From the IMG/VR virus record IMGVR_UViG_646311924_000019: a stretch of DNA of 47,189 nucleotides; one strand, given 5' to 3'. Below are positions 26,575 to 27,067 of the stretch, one piece after another. Origin of the DNA: a virus. Lineage: Duplodnaviria > Heunggongvirae > Uroviricota > Caudoviricetes. The position numbers and the translations under genes are program-made. The notes under the pieces are model-generated. The model did not search any database. It saw only the letters and a program-made list of their open reading frames with translations, and was not told where the DNA came from. How positions within the stretch are numbered: position 1 is the stretch's first letter; every line of letters begins with the position of its first letter.

Positions 26575-26847
26575 TTACAGCATCATGACCGATTCGGGTT
26601 GAGGTTCAGTCGCATCGGCGACCGGTGATTCAGGCTGAACTTCACCGCTCTCTGCGGTGGTATCTCCCGCTTCAGTCGGTGGCTCTGCCTGTACACCAAG
26701 CAGCTCATCCAGAATGGCATCAACCTCTGCATCAAGACGCGCTTCCAGGTTATGGCGAAGTTTTTGTTTCAGTGCGCTCCGGACTTCTTCAGAGCGCAGG
26801 ACTTCCTTCACTGCTTCAGCAGTGACCAGGGATGTAATTTCTGACAT
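26575..26847 (-). CDS. Hypothetical acidic protein upstream of S
   Basis: 90 aa from the internal ATG at 26847 (track ORF starts at an upstream GTG); weak Shine-Dalgarno. Confidence 0.4.
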
Positions 26848-26887
26848 GGGATTTTCTCGTCGAAAGATGTGATTAAGAAAGTTGCCG

Positions 26888-27067
26888 CTAAATGAGCGGC
26901 TCTTCGGGTTTGCTTCCGGCTGACTGACTGGCGCTGATTTTCTCAGCGGCCCTTTTGTCAATCTGTCTGCGCCAGAAGTCACGCATGGCCCTGTACCCAC
27001 CCGAAAGGAGATACAGCACACAGACCACCGTACAGAAGTACAGCATTAACTGGTTCAGAAATGTCAT
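26888..27067 (-). CDS. Small membrane protein (59 aa), below the ORF-track cutoff
   Basis: Hand-translated MTFLNQLMLYFCTVVCVLYLLSGGYRAMRDFWRRQIDKRAAEK...; one TM helix; GGAAAG 9 nt upstream of the ATG. Confidence 0.45.
   Translation of the reverse strand: MTFLNQLMLYFCTVVCVLYLLSGGYRAMRDFWRRQIDKRAAEKISASQSAGSKPEEPLI

Follow-up and report, generated by a model that had tools for sequence, protein, structure and literature searches.

Two small genes ahead of the pinholin gene in a Stx2a prophage, DUF1378 and DUF826, as a candidate accessory lysis module

Antiholins and lysis-inhibition factors, among them the dual-start products lambda S107 and S21-71, P1 LydB, and T4 RI and RIII, tune the timing of holins, and T4 pairs a membrane protein with a small cytoplasmic protein (RI and RIII). 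In phage 21, the S, R and Rz/Rz1 genes alone are enough for lysis. Two other lysis factors are single membrane-tethered proteins. The Mu "releasin" gp25 (DUF2730) is an N-out/C-in membrane-tethered cytoplasmic protein whose gene lies just 3′ of those for the endolysin and spanin; it is needed for release of the SAR endolysin, and its family is also found with soluble endolysins (PMC9239132). Lcc6 (SO_4795) of the Shewanella prophage LambdaSo is a protein of 65 aa in which residues 5–22 form a transmembrane helix and the cytoplasmic tail has 43 aa. Lysis by the pinholin and SAR endolysin of that phage strictly depends on it, although its gene is far from the cassette, showing that such factors need not adjoin the lysis genes (bioRxiv 10.1101/2024.01.23.576932). 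YdfR, from the Qin prophage of Escherichia coli K-12, is a small protein that binds RNase E (PMC13232886).

Here we consider two small genes in a stretch of 47,189 nucleotides (IMG/VR record IMGVR_UViG_646311924_000019), referred to in its entirety as the window. The window is recognisable as a Stx2a prophage of the 933W-like kind whose late genes are encoded by the minus strand, and the segment 26200–27300 is a 100% match to E. coli 2013C-3277. How much toxin a Stx phage releases, and when, depends on the time at which the lysis genes of its late operon fire. Along the minus strand, Q is followed by three tRNAs, stx2AB, the NanS-p esterase gene, a 59-aa ORF, a 90-aa ORF, the gene for an S21-type class II holin (S), a frameshifted pseudogene, the gene for a SAR-type lysozyme (R), a 45-aa ORF and Rz/Rz1; bor lies beyond Rz/Rz1 on the opposite strand. 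The features around the two small ORFs are:

27205–29142, minus strand: NanS-p sialate O-acetylesterase (DUF1737, SASA and DUF6645 by Pfam)
27167–27203, no strand assigned: strong, conserved hairpin (CCGCCAGCG...CGCTGGCGG) immediately 3′ of the nanS-p stop (fold z-score −4.7)
27073–27078, minus strand: Shine–Dalgarno-like GGAAAG, 5 nt 5′ of the DUF1378 ATG (from the sequence)
26888–27067, minus strand: DUF1378 gene, encoding a 59-aa predicted membrane-tethered protein (MTFLNQLMLYFCTVVCVLYLLSGGYRAMRDFWRRQIDKRAAEKISASQSAGSKPEEPLI) (ORF; Pfam PF07125; phrog_494; RefSeq WP_000143458.1)
26575–26847, minus strand: DUF826 gene, encoding a 90-aa acidic soluble protein (ORF; Pfam PF05696; phrog_311 and phrog_8301; RefSeq WP_001290231.1)
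26534–26564, minus strand: terminator-like hairpin (GGGCCATCAG...CTGCTGGCC) with TTTTT after it, located 3′ of the DUF826 stop and ahead of the ribosome-binding site of S (from sequence and fold)
26283–26498, minus strand: class II holin of the S21 family (pinholin), with a dual start of its own (MYQM...) (Pfam Phage_holin_2_1, E = 8.5e-33; RefSeq)

The original prediction described a 59-aa single-pass membrane ORF and a 90-aa highly acidic ORF between the esterase and the holin, and in these respects it was accurate. The smaller protein has one hydrophobic stretch, at residues 3–21 (mean Kyte–Doolittle value 1.98), with no charge before it and eight Lys or Arg residues after it; by the positive-inside rule, its topology is predicted to be N-out/C-in, with the basic helical tail in the cytoplasm. 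It matches Pfam DUF1378 with 134 bits (E = 2e-39, residues 1–59 on model positions 1–59), exceeding the gathering threshold of 25 bits over the full model. Its parts are a transmembrane helix at approximately residues 3–24, an invariant GG-Y/W motif, a basic juxtamembrane segment and a short disordered tail, and AF2 models a single continuous helix from residue 3 to residue 50. Members of the family range from 48 to 91 aa. In the intergenic alignment, the Shine–Dalgarno position is purine-rich (GGAAAG, GGTAAG or GGGAGG) across all variants.

The larger protein (pI 4.19, net charge −13) starts at the ATG at 26847, and 76 nt separate its stop codon from the start of S. Its match to Pfam DUF826, 103 bits (E = 9.6e-30, residues 1–68 on model positions 1–70 of 75), is likewise above a gathering threshold of 25 bits. 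A conserved helical N-domain (residues 1–51) precedes a tail that is variable, disordered and rich in Pro and Glu, with MML as its last residues; AF2 places helices at residues 10–17 and 20–49 with pLDDT values of about 90, and below 50 in the tail. The two proteins are full-length members of PF07125/phrog_494 and PF05696/phrog_311, identical to RefSeq entries, and RefSeq annotates both genes at identical coordinates. Both are therefore already catalogued, as known Pfam families without assigned function, and what the present analysis adds is their genomic context. Neither ORF matched a holin family in Pfam and PHROG profile searches. A PDB sequence search and Foldseek returned nothing useful for the pair, and a literature search with the old locus tags gave no relevant paper; the sole paper found to name the two families merely mentions them between nanS-p and S of some Stx2a phages (PMC10462455).

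Annotation of this segment is uneven elsewhere. The reference 933W record (AF125520, 25307–25753; L084 3308–3754) carries a 148-aa ORF, L0106, and has no DUF1378 gene. We rejected the corresponding GTG-initiated ORF at 26575–27021 as an over-extension of DUF826, since the part added overlaps DUF1378 in a frame without coding constraint. Apparent fusions were also rejected, namely P0128 (DUF1378 with DUF826), P0220 (holin with DUF826) and phrog_8301, which spans both ORFs: they are frameshift read-throughs or deletion chimeras rather than Rosetta-stone fusions. Several pipelines label DUF826 a "head completion protein", as in the PhiR12 phages and phiSTEC801, apparently a spurious name.

Both ORFs are small, one of them under common ORF cut-offs, and DUF1378 was overlooked in the original 933W annotation; they might on these grounds be taken for spurious or decaying reading frames without function. 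The substitution pattern refutes this. The original prediction had staked itself on coding constraint in homologous regions, and by the pooled Nei–Gojobori method (76 distinct nucleotide versions of DUF1378 and 74 of DUF826, from about 220 IMG/VR loci), dN/dS in the annotated frames is 0.22 for DUF1378 and 0.40 for DUF826, against 1.2–1.6 in the two shifted frames. Within clades the values are 0.10–0.38, with purifying selection in every clade tested, the Mu-like and Cedecea-type clades included. Constraint on DUF1378 peaks in the transmembrane and juxtamembrane part (0.16); in DUF826 the helical N-domain has a ratio of 0.35 and the tail one of 0.44. Conservation extends to the start codons and ribosome-binding sites, and both Pfam scores lie far above threshold. 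Judged by these comparisons, both small ORFs are real genes under purifying selection, and the idea that they are spurious is scarcely credible.

The two families are, on the evidence of database searches, very narrow. When 5.8 billion proteins were searched with a word index, the matches were almost confined to Escherichia and Shigella, with a few in Citrobacter, Cedecea and Erwinia. An exhaustive HMMER profile search of 1.84 billion representatives gave 37 clusters of DUF1378 at 50% identity, and among genomes scanned at one for each species, DUF1378 turned up once, in Cedecea, and DUF826 not at all. Among phage genome records, DUF826 occurs in 306 and DUF1378 in 309. DUF826 is found only beside DUF1378; DUF1378 occurs without DUF826 in many phages.

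Comparison with gp25 reveals a common design. DUF1378, like gp25, has one N-terminal transmembrane helix, a predicted N-out/C-in topology, a helical cytoplasmic tail, and a GG motif near the cytoplasmic end of the membrane helix followed by basic residues. Its relatives also lie just 3′ of endolysin and spanin genes, ahead of terminase, and the family occurs alongside both SAR and soluble endolysins. There are differences: in the window DUF1378 is upstream of S and R, the downstream position being seen in distant relatives; DUF1378 is shorter (48–91 aa as against 99 aa); the window phage has a pinholin and Mu has none; and Mu-like phages with DUF1378 also carry a gp25 homologue. Homology to the releasin was not found, there being no detectable similarity at the level of sequence or profile: hhalign of a 23-sequence DUF1378 profile against gp25 gave a probability of 0.2%, and the window DUF1378 protein had no match to PF10805 (DUF2730). 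DUF1378 is therefore not a member of the releasin family.

DUF1378 also resembles Lcc6 in architecture, a comparison made with the description of Lcc6 only; unlike Lcc6, which is required for lysis, it is dispensable for many S21 cassettes. With the antiholins and lysis-inhibition factors the pair has in common that they are small proteins encoded at lysis cassettes. It has no sequence relation to them, the window S has its own dual-start antiholin (MYQM), and DUF1378 is predicted to have the reverse topology of T4 RI, which has a periplasmic domain. YdfR, like DUF826, is a small prophage protein adjoining an S21-type holin, and annotations often confuse the two; unlike DUF826, it belongs to DUF1327 and is located between S and R. 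The identity of the 90-aa protein with YdfR was rejected, as BLASTP gave no alignment and K-12 YdfR matches DUF1327 only. The RNase E data are thus not applicable to DUF826.

Across IMG/VR loci and the contigs of distant members, DUF1378 is located inside lysis cassettes, or is their last gene, in at least ten architectures, with varied types of holin and endolysin. The gene orders include:

BUCT709-like phages (25 loci): S21 holin, SAR lysozyme, Rz/Rz1, DUF1378 with an ATGA stop–start overlap
L227: Q, holin_3_1, soluble lysozyme, DUF7940, DUF2570, DUF1378, DUF826, terminase
L229: muramidase, DUF7940, Phage_lysis, DUF1378
L231: SAR lysozyme, DUF2570, LysC, DUF1378
L233: endolysin, DUF1378, i-spanin
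L252: holin_2_1, lysozyme, DUF1378
L254: holin_3_1, lysozyme, DUF2570, DUF1378
L255: Q, holin_2_1, lysozyme, Rz, DUF1378
L230 and L151: Rz, DUF1378

In L232, as in L252, DUF1378 is directly 3′ of the endolysin gene. Across the family, its start often overlaps the Rz stop codon. It is found with soluble endolysins in L227, L229 and L254; in L227 and L254, which have a lambda-type holin and a soluble lysozyme, it follows a DUF2570 or Phage_lysis i-spanin. The gene after DUF1378 in L227 is a bona fide DUF826 (E = 2.6e-15). In L220–222 the order is inverted, DUF826 preceding DUF1378, with the two genes still adjacent; that adjacency is kept despite the inversion argues that the two proteins work together.

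In three of these loci (L252 4184–4414, L255 4179–4346 and L232 567–794), the DUF826 slot after DUF1378 is occupied by an unrelated small acidic protein, rich in Ala, Glu and Val, with a pI of 4.1–4.8 and no family match. The DUF1378 members P0321, P0322 and P0327 have a long acidic helical C-terminal extension. Taken together, the acidic slot proteins and acidic extensions suggest one function, supplied by a separate protein or in the same chain.

The cassette of Stenotrophomonas phage vB_SmeS_BUCT709 (OM816835) is unusual in its own right. An S21-family pinholin ORF (L086 2721–2936) is unannotated in GenBank, as is an embedded Rz1 with a lipobox (3697–3891). The cassette is close to enterobacterial ones, the lysozyme being 74% identical to the window R and the GC content of the locus 0.48, and such an enterobacterial-like cassette is odd in a Stenotrophomonas phage.

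We propose that, within the phage late operon, DUF1378 and DUF826 make up a conserved module of two genes. DUF1378 would be anchored in the cytoplasmic membrane through its one N-terminal helix, with the basic tail in the cytoplasm, and DUF826, a soluble acidic helical protein, would most likely be its cytoplasmic partner or regulator, since it is found only next to DUF1378. That the pair is a dispensable accessory lysis module, made up of a membrane-tethered protein and an acidic partner, is a reading to which we give an even chance; it draws on DUF1378 having the same design as two proven lysis factors, gp25 and Lcc6. Acting at the cytoplasmic membrane and in a non-essential capacity, the pair may tune the timing or sharpness of pinholin firing or of SAR-endolysin release. 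It would act in the manner of Mu releasin gp25 or LambdaSo Lcc6, though without homology to gp25, and the step concerned could be that of the holin, the endolysin or the spanin. The association of the family with lysis cassettes, the pairing and the conservation are observed; the interaction of the two proteins and the lysis step are what we infer. In its most specific form, the proposal is that of a previously unrecognised two-component lysis module of Enterobacterales phages that sets the timing or sharpness of pinholin/SAR-endolysin lysis; this we advance tentatively, its probability falling somewhat short of even. If it is true, the pair would be a new determinant of the release of Shiga toxin and NanS-p from induced STEC, and would provide a third case, after Mu gp25 and LambdaSo Lcc6, of membrane-tethered factors beyond the holin–endolysin–spanin scheme.

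The distribution of the pair away from lysis genes argues against a lysis role. E. coli pairs always lie 3′ of nanS-p in lambdoid and Mu-like loci with enough flanking sequence, and the block of nanS-p, DUF1378 and DUF826 occurs in about 150 lambdoid loci and at the right end of 21 Mu-like loci, the lambdoid and Mu-like versions differing by 40–65% at the protein level. In the Mu-like phages, the block follows gin and precedes the com/methylase unit, 25 kb from the lysis genes, and those of E. coli that carry the pair encode an endolysin, a spanin and a gp25 homologue of their own. In Cedecea-type prophages, it is tail-fibre assembly genes that precede DUF1378, which is accompanied in some by DUF826 and lies beside an acetyltransferase and a Dam methylase. 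The pair is absent from many S21 cassettes, including that of K-12 Qin, and an O25:H4 prophage has nanS-p immediately next to S; by this survey, the pair is clearly dispensable for many S21 cassettes.

These positions lend themselves to another explanation, that the pair is a cargo (moron) module unrelated to lysis, either an accessory membrane function borne at recombination hot spots of temperate phages, for example superinfection exclusion or another envelope effect, or an aid to NanS-p, with which it moves as a block of three genes. The slot after Rz is a classic moron site, and hairpins flank the block. An obligatory role as NanS-p helper is unlikely, because the pair is often found in the absence of nanS-p, which itself also occurs without the pair. 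More generally, the majority of divergent lineages have DUF1378 in lysis cassettes, where the gene is often translationally coupled to Rz or placed between endolysin and i-spanin, an arrangement unusual for morons; PADLOC gave no matches. We regard the cargo explanation as possible but doubtful. Were it correct, the finding would be an ordinary one: a region known to be rich in morons would contain two DUF genes catalogued long ago. The original prediction had offered both a lysis regulator and a cargo slot. The first gains comparative support from the diverse cassettes that contain DUF1378 and from the gp25/Lcc6 design, and loses by the non-lysis positions and the many S21 cassettes without the pair; the second is favoured by the nanS-p block of the Mu-like phages and the tail-fibre sites, and disfavoured by the position of DUF1378 in lysis cassettes in the majority of divergent lineages.

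The Mu-like loci merit description in themselves. In a Mu-like phage inserted in a Stx1a phage (LC727895; L088 2152–7289), and likewise in L089–L114, a nanS-p paralogue with a different N-terminal domain is followed by DUF1378 and DUF826, the block lying between gin and a com-like/C5-methyltransferase unit. A virulence-associated esterase block is thereby carried on a transposable phage.

The RNA signals and base composition bear on the same choice. The hairpin at 26534–26564, which splits DUF826 from S and in that respect speaks against a lysis role, is conserved across variants despite differing stem sequences; RNAalifold gives 12 pairs, four of them with compensatory changes, and the hairpin probably functions as a terminator. 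A hairpin is also found 3′ of DUF826 in the Mu-like locus. The stem of the second hairpin, at 27167–27203, covaries among variants. On the gene strand it is preceded by A8, that is, T8 on the plus strand, and it therefore reads as a canonical intrinsic terminator on the plus strand only, where it would terminate transcription antisense to the late operon. Of the marks of a moron in the sense of an independent transcription unit (Hendrix-type), a downstream terminator-like hairpin with a T-run is present and a difference in base composition is absent: the GC content of the pair is 0.52–0.535, S having 0.53, R 0.55 and the window 0.523. A simple, crude scan of the minus strand between nanS-p and S (26500–27200), together with inspection by eye, detected no sigma-70-like promoter; this, too, counts against cargo.

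Transcription of nanS-p rises by 1–2.4 logs on mitomycin C (PMC10462455). Given this rise, and because S, R and Rz are transcribed from pR′ through the pair, both genes are, from the structure of the operon, almost certainly expressed late after induction. Since transcription from pR′ has no way to S other than across both genes, their products would be synthesised along with Stx2, NanS-p and the lysis proteins.

The pairing of a membrane peptide that is small and basic with a soluble protein that is strongly acidic, in an adjacency that survives inversion of the gene order, also calls to mind a toxin–antitoxin-like or abortive-infection-like pair, in which DUF1378 would damage the membrane and DUF826 restrain it. 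Against this, DUF1378 stands alone in many phages, searches of PADLOC and NCBIfam gave no useful match of the pair to toxin or defence families, and the genes are located in a late operon with no promoter detected. Lcc6, which is of the same design, is harmless when overproduced (bioRxiv 10.1101/2024.01.23.576932), and by analogy DUF1378 might be so too. We consider a toxin-like pair improbable.

A few further observations concern neighbouring or related small genes. One 64-aa DUF1378 member (P0326; L253 91–285) lies beside DUF551-type early-region genes and not lysis genes; a scan of IMG/VR with it found nothing. In position and size it is reminiscent of LambdaSo Lcc6 as described, the comparison being by description alone. 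Between S and R of the window, ORFs of 50 aa and 140 aa (25763–26282, minus strand) jointly match the C-terminal half of phrog_1085 (296 aa); RefSeq labels this segment a frameshifted, N-terminally truncated pseudogene, and its GC content, 0.446, is below that of its neighbours. The same slot holds no gene in 933W and YdfR (DUF1327) in other prophages. The 45-aa ORF (24891–25028, minus strand) has a C-terminal transmembrane segment (...FILIWLVFVIMASGYFIGQIRWW) and a stop codon 1 nt ahead of the Rz start. It matches phrog_6632, to which no function is assigned, and is another small membrane protein within the lysis cassette; in other prophages of E. coli (L259 and L260), comparable tiny ORFs separate R from Rz.
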